A stretch of 64,000 nucleotides of DNA from Polaromonas sp. GTDB lineage: Bacteria; Pseudomonadota; Gammaproteobacteria; Burkholderiales; Burkholderiaceae_C. Shown piece after piece: positions 7,515 to 64,000 of this stretch. The translations under genes were made by a program, and so were the position numbers. The stretch covers positions 29,283 through 93,282 of the forward strand of contig JAYVTG010000097.1 of NCBI GenBank assembly GCA_043774625.1. The letters are read 5' to 3'. Within the stretch, counting starts at the first letter, position 1; the number at the start of each line of letters is the position of its first letter. The notes beneath the pieces are model-generated. The model had not been told where the DNA came from and ran no database searches. It saw only the letters and a program-made list of their open reading frames with translations.

Positions 7515-7721
7515 ATGAACAAGGCATCACCACCCACCGTCCGTTGCCCACAGTGCAAAGGCCCAACCCTGTTTGCTCCCAGTAACCCTTGGCGGCCTTT
7601 TTGCAGTGAACGCTGCAAAAACCGCGACTTTGGTGCTTGGGCGAGTGAGGAATTTCGCGTGCCCAGCACGCCACCGCCCGACGAGGTGTTTGGCGACGCC
7701 AGCCAGCAAAATATTCATTAA
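7515..7721 (+). CDS. yacG: DNA gyrase inhibitor YacG (zinc ribbon)
   Basis: Matches the YacG family: CPQCKG...[20 protein letters not shown]. Confidence 0.9.
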
Positions 7722-7733
7722 ATTCGCCTGATA

Positions 7734-7774
7734 CCAGCGTGGAATATGCGCGAGCAGCTATTATATTTATAGCG
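7734..7774 (+). repeat. REP-like 42-bp repeat, copy 1 (forward orientation)
   Basis: CCAGCGTGGAATATGCGCGAGCAGCTATTATATTTATAGCG. The same element recurs throughout the window. Confidence 0.9.
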
Positions 7775-15332: not shown

Positions 15333-15381
15333 TCCATTTGCAAAGAACGAAGGTCTGCGTTGATTAGAGCAGATTCAAATT

Positions 15382-15440
15382 GCTATATATTTAGTAGCTG
15401 CTCGCGCATATTCTACGCTGGCAATCGGCACTTTTCCCCA
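15382..15440 (-). repeat. REP-like repeat, copy 2 (reverse orientation, with 3' extension)
   Basis: GCTATATATTTAGTAGCTGCTCGCGCATATTCTACGCTGGCAATCGGCACTTTTCCCC. Confidence 0.9.
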
Positions 15441-19877: not shown

Positions 19878-20645
19878 ATGGCTGATATTGTTCTCAACGT
19901 AGCCGGTGTTTCCAAACGCTTTGGCGGCCTGCAGGCTTTAAGCGATGTAGGTATCAAAATTGAACGCGGCCAGGTCTATGGCCTGATCGGCCCCAACGGT
20001 GCCGGTAAAACCACCTTCTTCAACGTGCTGACTGGCCTGTACACGCCAGACAGCGGCACGTTTGAGCTGGCAGGCAAGCCCTATACACCGTCTGCCGTGC
20101 ACGAAGTGGCCAAAGCGGGCATTGCGCGTACTTTTCAAAATATTCGTTTGTTTGCCGACATGACCGCTTTAGAAAACGTGATGGTAGGGCGGCACATTCG
20201 CACGGGCTCGGGCCTGTTGGGTGCGATTTTTCAAACACCCCATTTCAAGATGGAGGAAAAAGCCATTGCCCAACGTGCGCAGGAGTTGTTGGACTATGTG
20301 GGCATTGGCAAGTTTGCCGACTACAAAGCCCGCACACTGTCGTATGGTGACCAACGCCGCCTGGAGATTGCCCGCGCCTTGGCTACCGACCCCCAACTGA
20401 TTGCGCTGGACGAGCCCGCTGCAGGCATGAACGCCACAGAGAAAGTGCTGCTGCGCGAGCTGATTGACCGCATTCGCAAAGACAACCGCACCATCTTGCT
20501 GATTGAGCATGACGTGAAGCTGGTGATGGGCCTGTGTGACCGCGTGACGGTGCTGGACTACGGCAAGCAAATTGCCGAGGGTAAGCCAGCCGACGTGCAG
20601 AAAAACGAAAAAGTGATCGAAGCCTATCTGGGCTCAGACCACTAA
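19878..20645 (+). CDS. livG: Branched-chain amino acid ABC transporter ATP-binding protein
   Basis: Walker A GPNGAGKTT and signature LSYGDQRRLEIA. The ATG at 19878 follows AGGAGG. Confidence 0.92.
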   Translation: MADIVLNVAGVSKRFGGLQALSDVGIKIERGQVYGLIGPNGAGKTTFFNVLTGLYTPDSGTFELAGKPYTPSAVHEVAKAGIARTFQNIRLFADMTALENVMVGRHIRTGSGLLGAIFQTPHFKMEEKAIAQRAQELLDYVGIGKFADYKARTLSYGDQRRLEIARALATDPQLIALDEPAAGMNATEKVLLRELIDRIRKDNRTILLIEHDVKLVMGLCDRVTVLDYGKQIAEGKPADVQKNEKVIEAYLGSDH

Positions 20646-22540: not shown

Positions 22541-22556
22541 TAAAAACAGTCCATTG

Positions 22557-22596
22557 CCAGCGTGGAATATGCGCGAGCAGCTATACTATTAATAGC
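22557..22596 (+). repeat. REP-like repeat, copy 3
   Basis: CCAGCGTGGAATATGCGCGAGCAGCTATACTATTAATAGC. Confidence 0.9.
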
Positions 22597-22701
22597 ATTT
22601 ATGAATACCTGCGTGTCGTATGATTGCCCCATGGCATCAAGATCAGGCATGCACACCAACGCGTCGTATATCGCTCTTTTGTGAACCTTGGCATGCATAG
22701 A

Positions 22702-33889: not shown

Positions 33890-33958
33890 GTTCAACCATT
33901 TGGCTGTAGCCAACTGGGGGCAAGCTGCGCAGCTGAGAGATGCCACCGCTTACTTTAT

Positions 33959-33998
33959 GCTATTTATTTAATAGCTGCTCACGCACATTCCACGCTGG
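33959..33998 (-). repeat. REP-like repeat, copy 4 (reverse orientation)
   Basis: GCTATTTATTTAATAGCTGCTCACGCACATTCCACGCTGG, between convergent mrcA and cyaY. Confidence 0.9.
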
Positions 33999-34005
33999 CA
34001 TTCGG

Positions 34006-34338
34006 CTATTTATTGTTTAAAAACACCAATGCAGCGCCTGACTGCTCGCTGGCATGGCGGCTCAAATCCGCAAAGAACTCTGAGCCCTCGCGCGTACTGC
34101 GCCACTCGCCGTCAAACTTGTAGTGGAAACCACCTGCGCGGGTAGCCATCCACACCTCTTGCAGTGGCTTTTGCAGGTTGATGACAATCTGGCTGCGGTT
34201 CACAAAAGTCAGCGTCACCATGCCACCCACGCGCTGGTTGTCGATATCCGCATCCGTCTCGTCGTTCACGCGGTCGCATTGTGCCTCTACAGCCTTGAGC
34301 AAGGCTTCGGCGTGGTTCATGTAGTCAAGATCAGTCAT
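34006..34338 (-). CDS. cyaY: Frataxin-like iron-sulfur cluster protein CyaY
   Basis: [22 protein letters not shown]...[15 protein letters not shown], 110 aa. The ORF track extends it artificially to 34590. Confidence 0.9.
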
Positions 34339-45109: not shown

Positions 45110-45134
45110 TTTTTAGTGTACTTTTAGCCAAATG

Positions 45135-45176
45135 CCAGCGTGGAATATGCGCAAGCAGCTATTTATTTAATAGCAA
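45135..45176 (+). repeat. REP-like repeat, copy 5 (overlaps pstS stop)
   Basis: CCAGCGTGGAATATGCGCAAGCAGCTATTTATTTAATAGCAA. The last four pstS codons plus TAA (gtt gct att aaa taa) lie inside it. Confidence 0.9.
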
Positions 45177-53839: not shown

Positions 53840-54558
53840 GTGCCGTCAATCACCACACACCCCTAGACAAAACCGCAAGTTACAGCCTGACACAACGCGC
53901 CCTGGCCGAATGCCTGGGCACGGCCATGTTGCTGTGCGCCGTCATTGGCTCAGGCATCATGGCTGAACGCTTGAGTGGTGGCAATAACGGCGTCGCACTG
54001 CTGGCCAATACCTTGGCAACGGTGTTTGCATTGTTTGTTTTGATTGAAATTCTGGGGCCGATCAGCGGAGCGCACTTTAACCCGCTGGTTAGCATTATTT
54101 ACCTGCCAAAACAACCTGCAGCCAGCGTAGAATATGCGCAAGCAGCTACTATTTATATAGCAGCGCAATTGGCAGGTGCTGTGTTGGGCGCATGGCTTGC
54201 CAACGCCATGTTTGACTTGCCGGTGCTGCACACCAGTGCCAAGCTGCGTGGCGGCTGGGGGCAGTGGCTGGCAGAAGCCGTGGCCACTGCGGGCTTGATT
54301 TTCGTCATCGCACGTGCGGGTGCAGCGGGGGTGCACGCCAAAGCCAGTGCGCTGGTAGCTTGTTACATTGGCGCGGCCTATTGGTTTACCGCCAGCACGT
54401 CGTTCGCCAACCCCGCTGCCGTGATGGGCCGCATGCTGAGCGACAGTTTTGCAGGTATCGCACCGGCCAGTGCTTGGGGTTTTGTACTGGCGCAATGTGT
54501 GGGTGCCGTGGCGGGGGTGTGGGCATCGAAGGCGTTTGCAGCACCTGCGCGCCAGTGA
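53836..54558 (+). CDS. MIP/aquaporin-family channel (AqpS-like, candidate arsenite channel) carrying an in-frame REP-like copy
   Basis: A six-TM MIP with GAHFNPLVS in place of the first NPA box and FANPAAV as the second. It overlaps the arsC stop. Confidence 0.82.
   Translation: MSAVNHHTPLDKTASYSLTQRALAECLGTAMLLCAVIGSGIMAERLSGGNNGVALLANTLATVFALFVLIEILGPISGAHFNPLVSIIYLPKQPAASVEYAQAATIYIAAQLAGAVLGAWLANAMFDLPVLHTSAKLRGGWGQWLAEAVATAGLIFVIARAGAAGVHAKASALVACYIGAAYWFTASTSFANPAAVMGRMLSDSFAGIAPASAWGFVLAQCVGAVAGVWASKAFAAPARQ
54122..54161 (+). repeat. REP-like repeat copy inside the MIP channel CDS
   Basis: CCAGCGTAGAATATGCGCAAGCAGCTACTATTTATATAGC, translated as ASVEYAQAATIYIA in the same frame as the rarA copy. 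Confidence 0.88.
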
Positions 54559-56331: not shown

Positions 56332-56371
56332 CCAGCGTAGATTATGCGTGAGTAGCTACTTTTTTCATAGC
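56332..56371 (+). repeat. REP-like repeat, copy 8 (forms the folP 3' end)
   Basis: CCAGCGTAGATTATGCGTGAGTAGCTACTTTTTTCATAGC. The last folP codons (MKKVATHA) and the stop lie inside it. Confidence 0.85.
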
Positions 56372-57226
56372 ATTCCACACCGCCAGTGCCTGCGCAGTTT
56401 CGCGTACATCATGTACCCGCACAATGCTGGCACCGCGTTCTACGGCCAACAACGCTGCGGCCACGCTGGGCAGCATGCGGTCTGCTGCGTCCAGCCCCGT
56501 CACTGCGCCCAAAGAAGACTTGCGCGACCAGCCCGCCAACATGGGGTAACCCAGGCTCAGCAGTTCTGCCTGGCGCGCCAGCAGCGCAAAGTTTTGTTCC
56601 ACACTTTTGCCAAAACCAATACCGGGGTCGATGACGATACGGTTTTTAAACGATTCAGCAGCGTTTTTACCTATCAAATCAGCCTGTTGCCAGCGCGGAA
56701 TATGCGCGAGCAGCTCACAAAAAGATAGCAACTGGTTTTTCACTTCTGCCACGGTATCAGCACCATGCATCGGCTCTACCTGCATGGTCTGCGGGTCACG
56801 GTGCATGTGCATCAGCACCACGCCGCACTGGCCATGCTGCGCTACCACTTGCGCCGCGCCGCTTTGGCGAAAAGCCCAAATATCGTTAATGATGTCTACG
56901 CCCAGGTCCAGCGCGGCCAGCATCACTTCTGGCTTGTAGGTGTCCACCGACACCGGCACGCCCAGCTTGACCGCCGCCCGCACCAGTGGCAACACCCGCG
57001 CCAGTTCGTCAGCCAGCGGCAGCGGCGCAGCCCCGGGGCGTGACGACTCGCCGCCTATGTCCAAAATATGCGCCCCGTCCTTGATCAATTGCTCGCAATG
57101 CGCCAAGGCATCACGCGTGTTGGCATGTAGCCCGCCGTCTGAAAACGAGTCGGGCGTGACGTTGACAATGCCCATGATCTTGGGAGTTGTCAGTTCGATC
57201 TGGAAGCGGGTGGTTTGCCAATGCAT
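56342..57226 (-). CDS. folP: Dihydropteroate synthase
   Basis: MGIVNVTPDSFSDGG, DIGGESSRPGA and DPGIGFGK motifs. The start is taken at MHWQTTRF (57226), while the ORF track extends to 57271. Confidence 0.93.
   Translation of the reverse strand: MHWQTTRFQIELTTPKIMGIVNVTPDSFSDGGLHANTRDALAHCEQLIKDGAHILDIGGESSRPGAAPLPLADELARVLPLVRAAVKLGVPVSVDTYKPEVMLAALDLGVDIINDIWAFRQSGAAQVVAQHGQCGVVLMHMHRDPQTMQVEPMHGADTVAEVKNQLLSFCELLAHIPRWQQADLIGKNAAESFKNRIVIDPGIGFGKSVEQNFALLARQAELLSLGYPMLAGWSRKSSLGAVTGLDAADRMLPSVAAALLAVERGASIVRVHDVRETAQALAVWNAMKKVATHA
56690..56731 (+). repeat. REP-like repeat copy inside folP coding sequence
   Basis: CCAGCGCGGAATATGCGCGAGCAGCTCACAAAAAGATAGCAA, exactly 42 bp. It is read on the minus strand as LLSFCELLAHIPRWQ. 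Confidence 0.88.
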
Positions 57227-57288
57227 TTCTGGATGGTAACAAAGCTTGTTTTCTTGTGGGCGTGTATGCATACGGCTTAATCTTGTAC

Positions 57289-57598: not shown

Positions 57599-59527
<1,929 letters not shown>

Positions 59528-59775
59528 TCCAAGGGCATGGTGCCCGATGACTACAAATATGAGGCTATTTTAGGCTTTTCAAGCACTGTTTTGGTGGTTT
59601 GGGCGGTAACTGGGGGTTTTGCAGGGCTATTCGTGGCTTTATGGGCTTTATTTGCTTTGCTGGCATTGGTTTGCTTCGCCGCTCATGCTTGGTCTCTGGC
59701 TGCGGGTGGGTGCCGTGGCTGGGTGGGTCTGCTTCGCCGCTCTACTTTGGCCACTGGCTGCTGATGGGTGCACGT

Positions 59776-59815
59776 CGAGTGTGCTCATGCAGGAGTACCT
59801 GAAATCGCCCACTCG
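59776..59815. repeat. Element H3: 6-bp stem enclosing the same conserved 23-mer as H1
   Basis: CGAGTG-tgc-TCATGCAGGAGTACCTGAAATCG-cc-CACTCG. The downstream TGCATGGGGGGTTGCGCTC resembles TGCGATTGGGGTTGGCGTTC found after H1. Confidence 0.7.
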
Positions 59816-59896
59816 CCATGCCTCCATCCGCGCTGCATGGGGGGTTGCGCTCTGTGGTTTCTGGCCTATCTTTTGTAGTGGTGGTATTGTGGTCAC

Positions 59897-59935
59897 TATG
59901 AAAATAATAGCTGCTTGCGCATATTCTGCGCTGGC
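59897..59935 (-). repeat. REP-like repeat, copy 10 (start of composite unit A)
   Basis: TATGAAAATAATAGCTGCTTGCGCATATTCTGCGCTGG. Confidence 0.88.
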
Positions 59936-60056
59936 AACTGGCATTTTTCTCTAACATCCGCATAAACACAGCGCAACAGACTGCGCACACCGCTCACACT
60001 GCGCTAGCGCATCATGGACTGTACGCACACGCAACTTGCTCAGAAGGCGCGGCGAT

Positions 60057-60154
60057 AGTAACAAAGGCTTGCCGGATTTCACGCTTAATTTATACCTGAT
60101 ACTATTTACAGTGTAGTGGCTAGCAAAGCTAGTGTGCAAGCGGCTTGTCACGCC
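60057..60154 (+). other. attC-like site (long class, R' degenerate GTC)
   Basis: TAGTAAC-aaagg-CTTGCCG ... GCAAG-cggctt-GTCACGC. It is about 80% similar to the site at 62149. Confidence 0.5.
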
Positions 60155-60177
60155 TTTTCAAAGTCAATGCATACATT

Positions 60178-60207
60178 TGAGCACATACGGCACACAACGG
60201 TATAATC
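60178..60207 (+). promoter_or_regulatory. Promoter for brnT-like operon, apparently leaderless
   Basis: TTGAGC, an 18-nt spacer, then TATAAT. The -10 box ends 8 nt before the ATG at 60216, and no SD is present. Confidence 0.45.
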
Positions 60208-60215
60208 CTGTTTAG

Positions 60216-60509
60216 ATGCTTAAAAAACCGATCCGCTGGAGTCCCGAAAAAAATATAGAGCTCATGCAAGAGCGAAGTATTTCGTTTGAAGAGATCCTCT
60301 CCTGCATTGAACAGGGTGGCCTGCTGACTGTTTTAGACCATCCAAATCAGCAAAAGTATCCGGGCCAGAGAATTTGGGTGGTGAAAGTCCGAGGCTACGC
60401 TCACCTGGTTCCGCTGGTCGAGTCAGAAGATGAAATATTCCTTAAAACAATTAAGCCTAGTCGCAAAGCGACGAAGCAGTTTCTAAGCGAGGTTAGCGAT
60501 GAAGAGTGA
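60216..60509 (+). CDS. BrnT-like (DUF497-type) toxin
   Basis: 97 aa, overlapping a downstream RHH/CopG-type antitoxin gene. The N-terminal W..EKN..L...R.ISFEE pattern resembles BrnT. The family assignment is from memory. Confidence 0.6.
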   Translation: MLKKPIRWSPEKNIELMQERSISFEEILSCIEQGGLLTVLDHPNQQKYPGQRIWVVKVRGYAHLVPLVESEDEIFLKTIKPSRKATKQFLSEVSDEE

Positions 60510-60822
60510 TAAAGACTACGAAATGGATATCCTGCGTTCGTTTGAAAAAGGCGAGTGGGAACCCATAAAAAATTTGAAAAAAGAAATGGATCGCTATCGC
60601 GAAGCGGCGGCCGAAACATTGCTGAAGAATAAACGTGTAAACATCCGTATTTCGGCAATTGATCTTGAGGGGCTACAAGCCAGAGCAGCAGCAGAGGGGT
60701 TGCCCTATCAAACATTGATGGCCAGTGTGCTTCATAAATATATTTCGGGTCGTCTTGTGGACGGACCGAAAGGTATAACTAGCCGTCCAAGCCCGTCAAC
60801 GCGAAAGCGCGTTGTGGCTTAA
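60499..60822 (+). CDS. BrnA/CopG-type antitoxin
   Basis: The C-terminal KRVNIRISAIDLEGLQARAAAEGLPYQTLMASVLHKYISG is typical of BrnA-like RHH antitoxins. It overlaps the toxin gene by 11 nt. Confidence 0.7.
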   Translation: MKSDKDYEMDILRSFEKGEWEPIKNLKKEMDRYREAAAETLLKNKRVNIRISAIDLEGLQARAAAEGLPYQTLMASVLHKYISGRLVDGPKGITSRPSPSTRKRVVA

Positions 60823-60830
60823 CTTCGATG

Positions 60831-60872
60831 TTGCTATTAACTTCATAGCTGCTTGCGCATATTCTGCGCTGG
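60831..60872 (-). repeat. REP-like repeat, copy 11 (start of composite unit B)
   Basis: TTGCTATTAACTTCATAGCTGCTTGCGCATATTCTGCGCTGG. Confidence 0.9.
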
Positions 60873-60987
60873 CAATCCCCTGTTTTGCCTCCAAAATCCG
60901 CATACATACAGAGCCACAGACTGCGCACATCGCGCTCGCGCACCATAGGCTGTGGGCACGCGTAGCATGGCGGGTAGGCCTGTGCGC

Positions 60988-61016
60988 TTCGAGTTTTCAA
61001 GGGTTTGGGCTATAGT
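60988..61016 (+). promoter_or_regulatory. Candidate promoter inside composite unit B
   Basis: TTCGAG, a 17-nt spacer, then TATAGT, 32 nt upstream of the ATG at 61048. The same module occurs at 62074-62102. Confidence 0.35.
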
Positions 61017-61047
61017 GCAGGCAACACATTCGTTCGCGCAACTCGAT

Positions 61048-61320
61048 ATGAAAAAGGTATCTACCGAAATGGCTGATCAAGACATTCCTGAATTAAAGCG
61101 CGATCAGCTAGGAAAAGGGGTGCGTGGCAAGTACCTCAAACACTTCAATCAAGGTAGCAACGTCATCGTTTTGCAGCCCGAAATTTTGAAGGTATTTCCG
61201 ACTTCTGAGGCTGTCAATAAGGCTTTAGCAAGCATGCTGGCTTTCGCTCAGGAGACGCAAGGTTTAACAAGTCGCTCAGGTCGCTCAAGTCGGACACCGC
61301 GTAAACGCGCCGCCGTGTAG
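61048..61320 (+). CDS. Small hypothetical protein (antitoxin-like, orphan)
   Basis: 90 aa with DQLGKGVRGKY...VIVLQPEILKVFPTSEAVNKAL and a basic tail. No SD precedes 61048, and an alternative ATG lies at 61069. Confidence 0.5.
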   Translation: MKKVSTEMADQDIPELKRDQLGKGVRGKYLKHFNQGSNVIVLQPEILKVFPTSEAVNKALASMLAFAQETQGLTSRSGRSSRTPRKRAAV

Positions 61321-61362
61321 CTCCAGAGTTGAAACCGTCTCAGTTCAGTGTACGATCTTGCC

Positions 61363-61587
61363 ATGACTCCAACAGCAATCGAACAATCTGTACTCGGCTT
61401 GCCCAAGTCTGAACGCGCGCATTTGCTGCATTTGTTGCTCGATAGCCTCGATGCACCGTCGGAGTCTGATATACAGGAAACCTGGCTGAATGAGGCGCAG
61501 CGCCGCGCGCAGGATATTGACGCAGGCAGAGTCGAACTTGTGAGTGGCGAGCAGCTTGAGCGACAAGTTCAGGCGCTTTTTAAGTGA
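61363..61587 (+). CDS. Addiction-module antitoxin (Unstab_antitox / TIGR02574-like)
   Basis: LGLPKSERAHLLHLLLDSLD....D.QE.WLNEAQRRAQDIDAGRVELV. Its stop overlaps the GTG of the downstream toxin (GTGA). Confidence 0.75.
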   Translation: MTPTAIEQSVLGLPKSERAHLLHLLLDSLDAPSESDIQETWLNEAQRRAQDIDAGRVELVSGEQLERQVQALFK

Positions 61588-61877
61588 TCTATTGGCTCCA
61601 TCCCGAGGCCGCTGAAGAACACAAAAACCAGGTCGCGCACTATGAAGGGCTTCAAGTCGGGCTGGGAAAGCGGTACCACACTGAATTTCAAAATGTCGTG
61701 GCTTGGGTTTGTGCTTCGCCTGATCGCTCACGTATTGTTTTTGCCCCGGATATTCGACGTGCAATGTTTAAGGTTTTTCACTTTGACCTTGTCTACCGCG
61801 AAGTCGATGGCTCAGTCCAAGTGCTGGCCATCGCCCATCATCGTCGCCAGCCAGGGTATTGGATGGCTCGACTTTAA
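61584..61877 (+). CDS. ParE/RelE-family toxin
   Basis: 97 aa, translationally coupled to the antitoxin, with a C-terminal FHFDLVYREVDGSVQVLAIAHHRRQPGYW pattern. Confidence 0.75.
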   Translation: MIYWLHPEAAEEHKNQVAHYEGLQVGLGKRYHTEFQNVVAWVCASPDRSRIVFAPDIRRAMFKVFHFDLVYREVDGSVQVLAIAHHRRQPGYWMARL

Positions 61878-61915
61878 CTGGTTGATCGACCCAACTTTCG
61901 CGGGTCACCGTCAAC

Positions 61916-61957
61916 GTTGCTATTAACTTTATAGCTGCTTGCGCATATTCTGCGCTG
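61916..61957 (-). repeat. REP-like repeat, copy 12 (start of composite unit C)
   Basis: TTGCTATTAACTTTATAGCTGCTTGCGCATATTCTGCGCTGG. Confidence 0.9.
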
Positions 61958-62073
61958 GCAATACGCCTATTTTGCCTCTAAAGTCCGCATACATACTGAG
62001 CAACAGACTACGCACATTGCGTTAGCGCATCATGAACTGTGGGCACGCGTAGCCTAGCGACTAGGCCAGAGCA

Positions 62074-62102
62074 CTTCTAGTTTTCAAGGGTTTGGGCTAT
62101 AG
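62074..62102 (+). promoter_or_regulatory. Candidate promoter inside composite unit C
   Basis: TTCTAG, a 17-nt spacer, then TATAGT. This is homologous to 60988-61016. Confidence 0.3.
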
Positions 62103-62148
62103 TACAGGCAACAAATTCGTTCGCGCAACTGGCTCAGAAGGCCCGGCG

Positions 62149-62244
62149 ACAGTAACCAAGGCTTGCCGGGTTTCATGCTTTATTTATACCTGATATTATT
62201 CATAGTGCATCGCTGCAAAACCAGTGTGCAAGAGGGTTGTTACG
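62149..62244 (+). other. attC-like site (long class)
   Basis: CAGTAAC-caagg-CTTGCCG ... GCAAG-agggtt-GTTACGT, with an imperfect extended stem (CGGGTTTCATGC / GCATCGCTGCAAAACC). Confidence 0.55.
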
Positions 62245-62337
62245 TCTTTAAAAATCAATATATACGGCAGCCGCCAGATTATGTTGCAGCGTCTGCTGTA
62301 TGCATTACGTTATTAGTCTTAATCGCAAGGTGTTCCC

Positions 62338-62679
62338 ATGAAAGTATCTGCACTTACATTGCTAATTTTGAACCTCAACAGTCTCATTGATTCAGGAAAA
62401 TATGCGGACATCACCATTGACGACATTCACAAGGCAATTGAAGGAAAACGTGTTTTACGCTTCCTAAAAGAACGAGCGAGAGATATTGACCTTAGCATCC
62501 ACCTGGATAGCAATGCTTACAATGGCTTCGAGTCTTACTATGAAACCCAGCTTGAAAATATCTATGGCGGGTCTGCTGGTAATGAGCGCAGAAAATGGGG
62601 CGTTGAGAAGTCAGGACTATGTCTTGTATTGGCTTGGACGAATGAAATTATCCAGCAGGGACAAAACCTTGAGTGGTAG
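62338..62679 (+). CDS. Hypothetical protein (cassette ORF)
   Basis: 113-aa ORF in low-GC DNA, bounded by attC-like sites. No family recognised. Confidence 0.55.
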   Translation: MKVSALTLLILNLNSLIDSGKYADITIDDIHKAIEGKRVLRFLKERARDIDLSIHLDSNAYNGFESYYETQLENIYGGSAGNERRKWGVEKSGLCLVLAWTNEIIQQGQNLEW

Positions 62680-62687
62680 CACCAGAC

Positions 62688-62747
62688 TCATAACCCTGCG
62701 CTCAAGTGGGACTGGTTTTCAGCCGGCCCCTTAGCTCCATGTTATAG
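62688..62747 (+). other. attC-like site (60-bp class)
   Basis: TCATAAC-cctgc-GCTCAAG-tgggactggttttcagccggccc-CTTAGC-tccat-GTTATAG. This is the classic R''-L''...L'-R' layout, with an extra base in L''. Confidence 0.7.
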
Positions 62748-62795
62748 ATCATGCGACCATAGTTGTATTCAGCAACGATAAATCAGGAAAACCTT

Positions 62796-63287
62796 ATGAA
62801 CAATCCTTTAGTCACACTTGACCAAAATGCGGTTGCTAACGAAATAGAAAGGCAGATTGCACTTCGCCAGTCTGCGGGGCAACCCCTTGCTCACGACCAC
62901 AAGCTAATCGCAGCGATTGAAAGCGTCACTGATAACACGGTGAAAGCAAAATTACTGCAAAAATGCATCGAATCAGTTAGCGAGCATCAGAGTCTAGTAG
63001 ATGCCGCTTTTCTTGCCGAAGTAAACAGCCGAATAAAAATTATTGATCACGAAATTGCGAAGGACCAATCAAGGGTCGAACTGTTCAATAGTAGGCCACT
63101 AATCCTTTTTGCGTGGTGTTTCCCAATCGCAGTCGGATTTGGCGCCATCAAATATCTTGACTCCTATGTTTTTGCAATTTTCACAATCATAGTTTTGTAT
63201 GGCGTATTAATTGCACTTTATTTTTCTCAGTCAACCGGCTTGATTGAAACTTTGAAAGGTTTTGCAAAAGCCGGGAGGAAGCTTTGA
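62796..63287 (+). CDS. Hypothetical membrane protein (cassette ORF)
   Basis: 163 aa from the ATG at 62796 (AGGAA upstream), with two C-terminal TM helices. Confidence 0.55.
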   Translation: MNNPLVTLDQNAVANEIERQIALRQSAGQPLAHDHKLIAAIESVTDNTVKAKLLQKCIESVSEHQSLVDAAFLAEVNSRIKIIDHEIAKDQSRVELFNSRPLILFAWCFPIAVGFGAIKYLDSYVFAIFTIIVLYGVLIALYFSQSTGLIETLKGFAKAGRKL

Positions 63288-63297
63288 CAACCAGACT

Positions 63298-63606
63298 ATG
63301 CTGGGGACCATTGCTGTGATTTTACTTTTCGCGATTTCAGGCTGGATAGAATTCCAATACTTTCGTACGAAACAAATGCTTGTTAGCTCGTCACTTGATG
63401 TAAAGCTAAGAATATGCCCGATACCTAAAGATGCAAAGTGTCCAGCGTTGCTCATAATCCCAAAAGGTAGTGTCGTCAAAGTATCCCGTCAAACTCAGTT
63501 TTACAAACAAGCGGATGGGCACGAGACTACGTGGAAGAAAGTTGAGTTTCAGTCTCAAAAGGGTTGGGTAAACGAAACCTTGCTTAGCAATGGGCCAGTC
63601 AAATGA
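63298..63606 (+). CDS. Hypothetical membrane-anchored protein with SH3b-like C-terminal region
   Basis: An N-terminal TM (IAVILLFAISGWI) and a C-terminal pattern G..V.V........W.KVEFQSQKGWV. An alternative TTG start lies at 63262. Confidence 0.5.
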   Translation: MLGTIAVILLFAISGWIEFQYFRTKQMLVSSSLDVKLRICPIPKDAKCPALLIIPKGSVVKVSRQTQFYKQADGHETTWKKVEFQSQKGWVNETLLSNGPVK

Positions 63607-63627
63607 TCTATATCTTGGCACTTTGTT

Positions 63628-63695
63628 GCCGTAAACCGCAACCCCAACAGGGTGCGGCTCGCTTGGGACGGGGAAGTCCCTTTCATTCGTTAGGC
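63628..63695 (+). other. attC-like site (68-bp class) ending in canonical GTTAGGC
   Basis: GCCGTAAAC...AACAGGG...CCCTTT-cattc-GTTAGGC. The next ORF starts 3 nt after the R' core. Confidence 0.5.
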
Positions 63696-63697
63696 CG

Positions 63698-64000
63698 ATG
63701 GAACTACCCCTCATAACCCTTCTCCTGCTCGTTCTCTTTGTCCAATACGGCGGCAGGCTTAAAGATGACTTGCGCCGAGCGATCGGTACGAATCCATCTG
63801 GGGTGATCAAGTACTTTGGCTCAGCAGCGGTGCTGTCAGTTGCACTCTCTTCTTTACCAGGAGTATTACTGTCCATATACATGCGCAACAATGGCTTTTT
63901 TGCGTTTGAATTGTTTGGCGAACGTCAGCACGCGTTTCAGGTTTTAAGCCTCAATGTCTTTTTCAATCTGCTTGTTGTCTCTCTGTATTTTTTTGCAGTG
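63698..64000 (+). CDS. Hypothetical membrane protein, 5' part (open to the window end)
   Basis: Hand translation from the ATG at 63698 gives MELPLITLLLLVLFVQYGGRLKDD...SLYFFAV. There is no stop for 101 codons and the sequence is hydrophobic. It is absent from the ORF track because it lacks a stop. Confidence 0.5.
   Translation, partial: MELPLITLLLLVLFVQYGGRLKDDLRRAIGTNPSGVIKYFGSAAVLSVALSSLPGVLLSIYMRNNGFFAFELFGERQHAFQVLSLNVFFNLLVVSLYFFAV

Follow-up and report, generated by a model that had tools for sequence, protein, structure and literature searches.

A probable integron-derived gene cassette array, with no neighbouring integrase, in the rlmE-ftsH interval of Polaromonas sp.

The right-hand end of the 64,000-nt stretch of Polaromonas sp. 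DNA analysed here (assembly GCA_043774625.1, contig JAYVTG010000097.1, positions 29,283 to 93,282 of the forward strand; hereafter the window) carries, from 59.9 to 64.0 kb, what is very probably the proximal part of an integron-derived cassette array, occupying the rlmE-ftsH interval of a freshwater-type Comamonadaceae chromosome. Its adjacent integrase would have been lost or never present, making it a cluster of attC sites lacking integron-integrase (CALIN; Cury et al. 2016, PMC4889954). The array is regarded as integron-derived because it matches attC covariance models, contains GTT-bounded cassettes that recur in other sequences, has homologues that carry canonical attCs, and includes an insertion sequence (IS) remnant at an R' core. 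A preliminary description, made from the letters alone, had already proposed a CALIN-like array without an integrase, and this proposal stands, together with its remark that the DNA becomes AT-richer from about 59.9 kb (GC 0.41-0.54 rightward, against 0.55-0.62 on the left side of the window); an open reading frame (ORF) survey also bears out that all plausible genes of the array are small and lie on the plus strand.

Integron integrases act on the bottom strand of attC in its folded form and recombine it at G|TT within the R' core. Such sites were sought on both strands of the window, with filters off, using three covariance models: R1, from 15 attCs delimited in class 1 integron arrays on plasmids; R2, built from 33 R1 matches; and R3, from 91 environmental attCs. 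R1 recovered three of four held-out attCs (estX, 32.0 bits; dfrA14, 30.4 bits; dfrA27, 22.2 bits), missing that of dfrA1, and gave no wrong-strand matches in 258 kb of plasmid loci. The site at 62688-62747 (plus strand; attC d), which the preliminary description had singled out, is recognized by all three models with 28.9 (R1), 28.8 (R2) and 36.6 bits (R3), corresponding to window E-values of 1.4e-5 to 1.4e-6, and its R1 score lies within the 22-32-bit range of the held-out true attCs. Its layout is canonical, TCATAAC CCTGC GCT[C]AAG tGGG[A]C...CCC CTT AGC TCCAT GTTATAG, with both extrahelical bases present.

Three weaker matches accompany attC d, and all four sites lie on the plus strand, each at the 3' end of an ORF (for a, b and c a BrnA-like gene, an orphan antitoxin gene and a ParE gene, respectively). 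AttC b (61262-61334; R1 18.4, R2 17.0, R3 10.6 bits) runs from GTTTAAC to GTTGAAA and owes its low score to a 9-nt tandem duplication (GCTCAGGTC/GCTCAAGTC) in the spacer between its R'' and L'' boxes; in a repeat shared with attC d (D12), it agrees with the L'' of the latter at 13 of 14 positions. The degenerate attC a (60773-60836; R1 13.8, R2 15.9, R3 17.3 bits), which spans the last 16 codons and the stop of the BrnA-like antitoxin gene, keeps an intact L box (GTC[C]AAGCC...GGCTTAAC), with R box pairing limited to AAC/GTT; its R', GTTGCTA, also forms the first bases of a repetitive extragenic palindromic (REP)-like element. The short and likewise degenerate attC c (61872-61922; CTTTAAC TGGTT GAT[C]GACCC...GGGTC ACC GTCAAC GTTGCTA), whose R' again coincides with the start of a REP-like element, is not matched by R1, scores 15.6 bits with R3 (window E 0.18) and is the fourth-best R2 match (7.4 bits) in a search of the array only.

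The three top R2 matches of the whole window and four of its five top R3 matches fall within the 4.1-kb array, the best match outside being a non-attC 27-nt hairpin at 20268 that consists of an R box only and scores 15-18 bits. R2 and R3 gave no match at E<=10 in 1.2 Mb of related Comamonadaceae DNA, and no Rfam family matches the array. Support for attC a and b also comes from homologues. In the array of locus L133, a toxin-antitoxin pair 61% and 54% identical to the BrnT/BrnA-like pair of the window ends in a canonical attC placed over the same C-terminal codons as attC a, and in L112 an antitoxin gene homologous to that preceding attC b ends in a canonical attC (GTTTAAC TACCC GCT[C]AAC TCGG[A]C...) over the same codons as attC b.

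As to the four sites named in the preliminary description, only 62688-62747 is thus a model-supported attC, and the three weak sites at 60773-60836, 61262-61334 and 61872-61922 had been missed. The other three named sites, 60057-60154, 62149-62244 and 63628-63695, are not scored as attC at E<=10, not even in a search restricted to the 4.1-kb array. The first two, also considered as attCs of about 95 nt, were dropped; they have a 5-bp L box and no extrahelical base, and they form the 3' parts of two copies of a three-copy repeat, to which the degenerate R' (GTC) noted previously also belongs. The attCs are indeed heterogeneous, sites a-d ranging from 49 to 73 nt with little mutual similarity and sharing, in the case of b and d, just a 14-nt L'' segment, whereas the earlier division into three classes rested on the three non-attC sites.

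The first cassette (60172-60832, plus strand) comprises a sigma-70-like promoter-like site (60177-60206), a BrnT-like gene (60216-60509) and a BrnA/CopG-like gene (60499-60822). The family relationship proposed for this pair holds up weakly: the Pfam E-values are 1e-3 to 5e-4 and the scores lie below the curated cut-offs (BrnT_toxin, 19.3 against 34.5 bits; BrnA_antitoxin, 18.3 against 26.1 bits), so that 'BrnT/BrnA-like' is the most that can be claimed; the BrnT homologue in L133 itself reaches 34.0 bits against the cut-off of 34.5. The BrnA-like protein falls in a 90% cluster. A group of sequences (L233-L241) are 88-89% identical to the window at the nucleotide level over exactly 60172-60832. 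There the edges of the unit read ...TTTCAC|GTTGTAG and ...TTCCAC|GTTAGGC, and its GC of 0.49 contrasts with flanks of 0.64-0.65 that carry a histidine-kinase-like gene on one side and an Slt-like gene on the other. In these sequences (for example L235, 401-1068) the unit appears as a lone cassette in a genome of GC 0.64, between an apparently truncated histidine-kinase-like neighbour and an Slt-type transglycosylase; its left flank, GGTCACTTTCAC|G, is similar to the end of the cassette's own attC, TTTGACTTCCAC|G.

Downstream, the gene at 61048-61320 (plus strand), which has no family match, encodes a product 49% identical by tblastn to the L112 ORF that follows a BrnT gene (BrnT Pfam E 2.7e-29); since that homologue is paired with a true BrnT and the toxin gene is absent here, 61048-61320 is taken to be an orphan antitoxin gene. 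Cassette 3 (61329-61917, plus strand), whose edges are inferred from attC b and c, contains a promoter-like site (61329-61356) and the Unstab-antitoxin/ParE pair of the preliminary description, both members of which exceed the Pfam cut-offs: Unstab_antitox at 61363-61587 (E 3e-14, 53.2 against 23.3 bits) and ParE at 61584-61877 (E 3.6e-5, 24.7 against 23 bits), overlapping by 4 nt. The promoter-like sites of both toxin-antitoxin cassettes come from a scan that overall did not rise above chance.

A single cassette of the array appears intact. It extends from 62311 to 62741 (plus strand), starts with TTATTAG, contains an ORF at 62338-62679 and has the G of the attC d R' core as its last base. 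Homology with L103-L107 (81%, window 62303-62714) starts at the core (GTTATTA, window 62310-62316 / GTTATGA), and the homologue in these sequences is followed by an attC of its own, which R2 scores at 25.8 and R3 at 41.0 bits. Moreover, the R'' of this cassette is complementary to the cassette's own first bases at 7 of 8 positions (CTAATAAC and CTCATAAC), and at 8 of 8 in L104, a relationship that is not found in the cassettes now starting with a REP-like element. The model of the 62338-62679 protein (predicted local distance difference test score 90.4) has one match in the PDB, 3FXH, the integron cassette protein Hfx_cass2 (template modelling score 0.75, root-mean-square deviation 2.2 A over 106 columns), which is also its top profile match (E 0.016). 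The product is thus predicted to share the compact all-alpha fold of Hfx_cass2, with a sequence identity of just 22%. Hfx_cass2 was obtained by cassette polymerase chain reaction from a sewage outfall in Halifax Harbour, and no homologues were reported (PMC3548836); in contrast, the 62338-62679 family (P0018-P0137) supplies sequence relatives, with at least 156 relatives or clusters that are 57-91% identical and extend over Proteobacteria and beyond, including Pseudomonas, Pectobacterium, Enterobacter, Morganella, Cellvibrio and Chlorobiales.

The fourth line of evidence is an approximately 77-nt IS remnant at 63612-63688 (plus strand), which makes up most of the putative attC at 63628-63695 of the preliminary description and abuts an R' core, GTTAGGC (63689-63695), that is left from the interrupted attC and marks the start of the next cassette. 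The stretch 63612-63696 is up to 91% identical to an IS110/IS1111-family end in L215, L179 and L131, the homology being confined to it, and the sequence upstream of the cassette homologue in L104 resembles 63628-63695 as well. Its motif GGRAGTCCNTTTCATTCGTTA is present in at least 120 metagenome contigs, where a divergent gene that carries DEDD_Tnp_IS110 and Transposase_20 domains and encodes 335-341 aa starts about 100 nt away; the remnant corresponds to the transposase-proximal end. In these contigs the IS end abuts GTTAGGC, GTTAGAC and similar cores, followed by cassette arrays, and in 421 kb of arrays carrying this IS family there are 118 attC matches, on the matching strand. At the other IS end (TACAAGGGCTTCCCC), the L'-spacer of an attC immediately precedes the element, so that full copies, in one orientation, sit between attC spacer and R'. 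The long non-coding region of the element is downstream of tnp, as is typical of the IS1111 type. The stretch 63628-63695 was also considered as a branched or novel class of attC and as a conserved attI (arrays follow it); both readings were rejected, as in L184 the element is flanked by attCs on either side and the gene next to it encodes an IS110-family transposase.

Elements of this kind form the IS1111-attC group, reportedly described by Tetu and Holmes in 2008 and by Post and Hall in 2009. Full copies of the related IS share with that group a DEDD transposase, a non-coding region downstream of tnp and the position between attC spacer and R', whereas the window retains about 77 nt of one end and has neither transposase nor other end. 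The DEDD (IS110-family) transposase gene that belongs to 63612-63688 is absent from the window and present in the full metagenomic copies; of 86 metagenome loci, about 12 carry similar transposase-less remnants. That members of the IS1111 type target attC is established, ISPst6 and ISKpn4 being published examples (PMC11187229). The environmental family found here (L112-L231, for example L118, L171 and L184) has a near-invariant end, GGGGAAGTCCCTTTCATTC, and is very common in cassette arrays, with at least 120 contigs; in L163 (5890-6020), an approximately 125-nt miniature derivative has the far IS end fused to the region just upstream of tnp.

Between attC d and the remnant lies a two-gene module (62742-63610, plus strand) that encodes a membrane protein (62796-63287) and an SH3-like protein (63298-63606). 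The sequence ATGATCTATA at 63601-63610 is exactly complementary, in inverted orientation, to the first bases of the cassette, TATAGATCAT, at 62743-62752 (inverted repeat I1; 10 of 10 positions), and may be read as a truncated R'' whose module has lost the remainder of its attC. Elsewhere, homologues of the module (L101, 203-3641; L108, 6810-10805; L109, 479-4474) stand repeatedly, in unrelated contigs, just downstream of DUF898 and M48-peptidase (DUF7092) genes, without an attC, a neighbourhood that may represent a second preferred location or a functional link. The last cassette begins at 63690 and runs to 64000 (plus strand), with an ORF from 63698 that continues past the window end; its only homologue found, P0001 in L100 (76-84% identity), lies upstream of an attC scoring 42.1 (R2) and 43.2 bits (R3). 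Pfam contains no family for 62338-62679, 62796-63287, 63298-63606 or the ORF from 63698. PADLOC assigned no defence system to the ORFs submitted to it, among which the ParE gene was not included, its sole match being a weak one of 62796-63287 to PDC-M14B (E 0.0043), and a plasmid collection yielded one uninformative protein match, in Desulfosarcina.

An unusual feature of the array is a plus-strand repeat found in three copies: A (59896-60174; REP-like head 59896-59948), which contains 60057-60154; B (60830-61043; head 60832-60885), truncated on its 3' side; and the full-length unit C (61916-62265; head 61918-61971), which contains 62149-62244. The head is an approximately 55-nt REP-like element, (G)TTGCTAT-N7-ATAGCTGCTYGCGCATATTCYRCGCTGGCA, present in about 19 copies on both strands of the 64 kb, and in the array it is followed by extensions of 160-300 nt at three cassette junctions. 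Mismatches between B and C are spread 10:9:8 over the three codon phases, implying that the repeat is non-coding. The R' positions of attC a and attC c (GTTGCTA) are exactly where copies B and C, respectively, start, and copy A ends at the start of cassette 1.

These positions, together with the non-coding character of the units, would suit a mobile repeat, either an attC-targeting miniature element or a set of ORF-less cassettes inserted at R'. This is nevertheless improbable, as the units lack terminal inverted repeats, a target duplication and a 3'-terminal attC, their 55-nt head is a genome-wide dispersed repeat of ordinary intergenic regions, and the extension was not found in any other sequence searched (an exact 30-mer of the repeat has 0 matches in genome contigs, 0 in metagenome contigs and none in the plasmid collection). 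Also improbable is the idea that the host REP-like element interacts with the integron machinery, whether because its GTT serves as a secondary site of cassette integration or because the REP-headed units are a new attC-targeting non-autonomous element. If true, the dispersed repeats of a genome would be connected with how cassette arrays form or decay; where attC sites and new cassettes come from has long been debated as an open question.

Most copies of the REP-like element are intergenic, examples being 7720-7773, 15381-15435, 22543-22597, 33958-34010, 45126-45176 and 54113-54162. The copy at 56676-56731 is in frame within folP (56342-57271, minus strand), where it adds 10-15 residues (...SFCELLAHIPRWQQADLIGKNAAESFKN...) in a variable loop of FolP relative to relatives. 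The element was not found in 80 related Comamonadaceae loci and therefore appears to be lineage-specific. A short-read contig of the same strain (L001, Logan SRR23617269) equals window 61933-63641, and its two ends fall exactly at the REP-like head of copy C and within the IS remnant, from which it follows that both are probably repeated elsewhere in the genome or sample.

The 80 Comamonadaceae loci, which were fetched with the N-terminus of FtsH and derive from Limnohabitans-, Rhodoferax- and Polaromonas-like metagenome-assembled genomes (best identity 91%), also place the left edge of the array. In these relatives the gene order is carB-greA-(membrane protein)-yhbY-rlmE-ftsH, with the end of rlmE about 107 nt from ftsH, whereas in the window the left neighbour of the array is ftsH (57599-59527, minus strand), as stated in the preliminary description, followed by folP and glmM, also on the minus strand; carB, greA, the membrane protein gene, yhbY and rlmE are all missing from the 64 kb. 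The 5' region of ftsH is retained at 59528-59590 (minus strand), as judged by blastn and sequence comparison with L002, L003, L007, L008 and L019, and includes the motif CTTGAAA.GCCTAAAAT (59560-59584), which is common to the relatives. Homology stops near 59590, the left edge of the insertion, and given the rlmE-ftsH synteny of the relatives, all DNA to the right of about 59.6 kb comes between ftsH and rlmE. Neither the ORFs nor the repeats of the array occur in any of the 80 loci.

Between this edge and repeat A lies a unique G/T-rich spacer of about 305 nt (59591-59895, no strand) of unexplained origin. It contains a tandem duplication with a 58-nt period, the 46-nt copies of which (59668-59713 and 59726-59771) are 80% identical, and it shows no integrase or attI similarity, no Pfam match for its ORFs and no match in any fetched locus.

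The plus-strand orientation of all attC matches places attI and intI on the ftsH side of the array, as had been predicted. In agreement with the absence of an integrase ORF noted in the same description, a tblastn search with IntI1 against all 64 kb gave a best E-value of 0.23, the related loci had no match either, no IntI-like or other tyrosine-recombinase similarity was detected in the window, and the ORFs at 59.6-60.0 kb have no Pfam match; there is accordingly no integrase within the array or in the 60 kb to its left. The array might instead belong to a complete integron, as its distal or displaced part, with an integrase beyond the window or elsewhere on the chromosome from which a rearrangement split it. 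Such an origin, under which the array would functionally be no orphan, is possible, if rather unlikely. The array runs off the window at 64000 in a source contig of about 148 kb, the IS remnant testifies to past rearrangement at the array, and about half of CALINs lie in replicons that encode IntI, rearrangements being able to split integrons (PMC4889954). On the other hand, the attC orientation points left to ftsH-folP-glmM and to 60 kb without recombinase similarity, and the heterogeneous, degraded attCs suggest a long lack of integrase activity.

As regards its class, the array has one attC with complete boxes and extrahelical bases (62688-62747) and units that recur as the same GTT-bounded segments in other contexts (60172-60832 and 62303-62714), both hallmarks of cassettes. 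A complete or sedentary chromosomal integron would have intI and attI upstream of the first cassette and homogeneous attCs, neither of which is seen. A CALIN is defined by a cluster of at least two attCs within 4 kb on one strand; here the surrogate models give one strong and three weak matches, two of the weak ones being supported by homology. Like known CALINs, the array appears to combine several one-strand attCs within 4 kb with cassettes that are mostly of unknown function and unlike those of clinical integrons, and it has no intI nearby up to 64000; nor does it contain a recognizable intI pseudogene, which is missing from 95% of CALINs (PMC4889954). It departs from them in having one strong attC, three decayed ones and one replaced by an IS remnant, as well as REP-like repeats at junctions. 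With sedentary arrays of the Vibrio superintegron type it shares a chromosomal location, small promoterless ORFs and toxin-antitoxin cassettes with their own promoter-like sites, but not an integrase, an attI or a single family of attCs.

Several points weigh against an integron-derived array. AttC d is the sole individually significant site, the other three scoring 7-18 bits, and these weak sites would probably fail the genome-wide E<=1 cut-off of IntegronFinder, for whose model R1, R2 and R3 are surrogates with 15-91 training sites and a shortened calibration. The single-stranded folding energies of the four sites proposed earlier resemble those of shuffles (z -1.5 to +0.9) and do not discriminate. 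Cassette 1 lacks, in the window, a GTT core at its left junction, homologues of the 62796-63606 gene pair lie outside attC contexts elsewhere, and the three REP-headed repeats at cassette junctions are unexplained. Finally, the integrase search covers the window up to 64000, where the array still continues, so that its total length and right side fall beyond this scope.

Taken together with the score that a non-attC hairpin reaches at 20268, the weakness of three of the four attCs, the REP-headed junctions and the array-free occurrences of the module could suggest an ordinary islet of toxin-antitoxin and orphan genes held by REP-like repeats, into which one stray cassette had come and where the weak attCs are chance hairpins. 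This is very improbable and largely refuted by the codon-for-codon homology of weak sites to canonical attCs of homologous cassettes, by the exact GTT-core edges of cassette 1 in another genome, by the derivation of the IS remnant from an attC-specific family, and by the placement of all attC matches on one strand at ORF 3' ends.

The integron-derived array that is favoured here would have had a history of capture followed by decay. Its cassettes would once have been moved by an integron integrase, which was later lost or separated from them. Three attCs (60773, 61262 and 61872) are degraded and 62688-62747 is still canonical, and a fifth was destroyed by an attC-targeting IS1111-type insertion, a later deletion removing most of the IS along with the remainder of the site; host REP-like copies with their extensions now occupy three cassette junctions. 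The array is probably sedentary now, and only the 62311-62741 cassette looks excisable, given an integrase in trans. As there is no Pc promoter upstream, transcription of the two toxin-antitoxin cassettes would start at promoter-like sites that they carry themselves, and by analogy with other chromosomal arrays they may stabilize the region.

Elsewhere in the window, the plus-strand segment 1983-2057 has an Rfam tRNA match (37.2 bits, above the gathering score) that is not called by ARAGORN; its alignment includes several non-standard pairs and an anticodon loop UUCGGGA, and the segment is possibly a tRNA-Pro that has degenerated or else a tRNA-like remnant.

In summary, nothing in the array changes existing knowledge of integrons: in sequenced genomes CALINs are commoner than complete integrons (279 against 164; PMC4889954), and the array adds to a known kind. 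It connects the orphan fold of Hfx_cass2 with a widespread family of small proteins, and it indicates that such arrays are easily under-called, as a standard attC scan would probably report one site here. Above all, it offers a worked example of how an orphan array may age in an environmental betaproteobacterium, where attCs erode, an attC-specific IS enters and is then deleted, host repeats arrive, and toxin-antitoxin cassettes persist.

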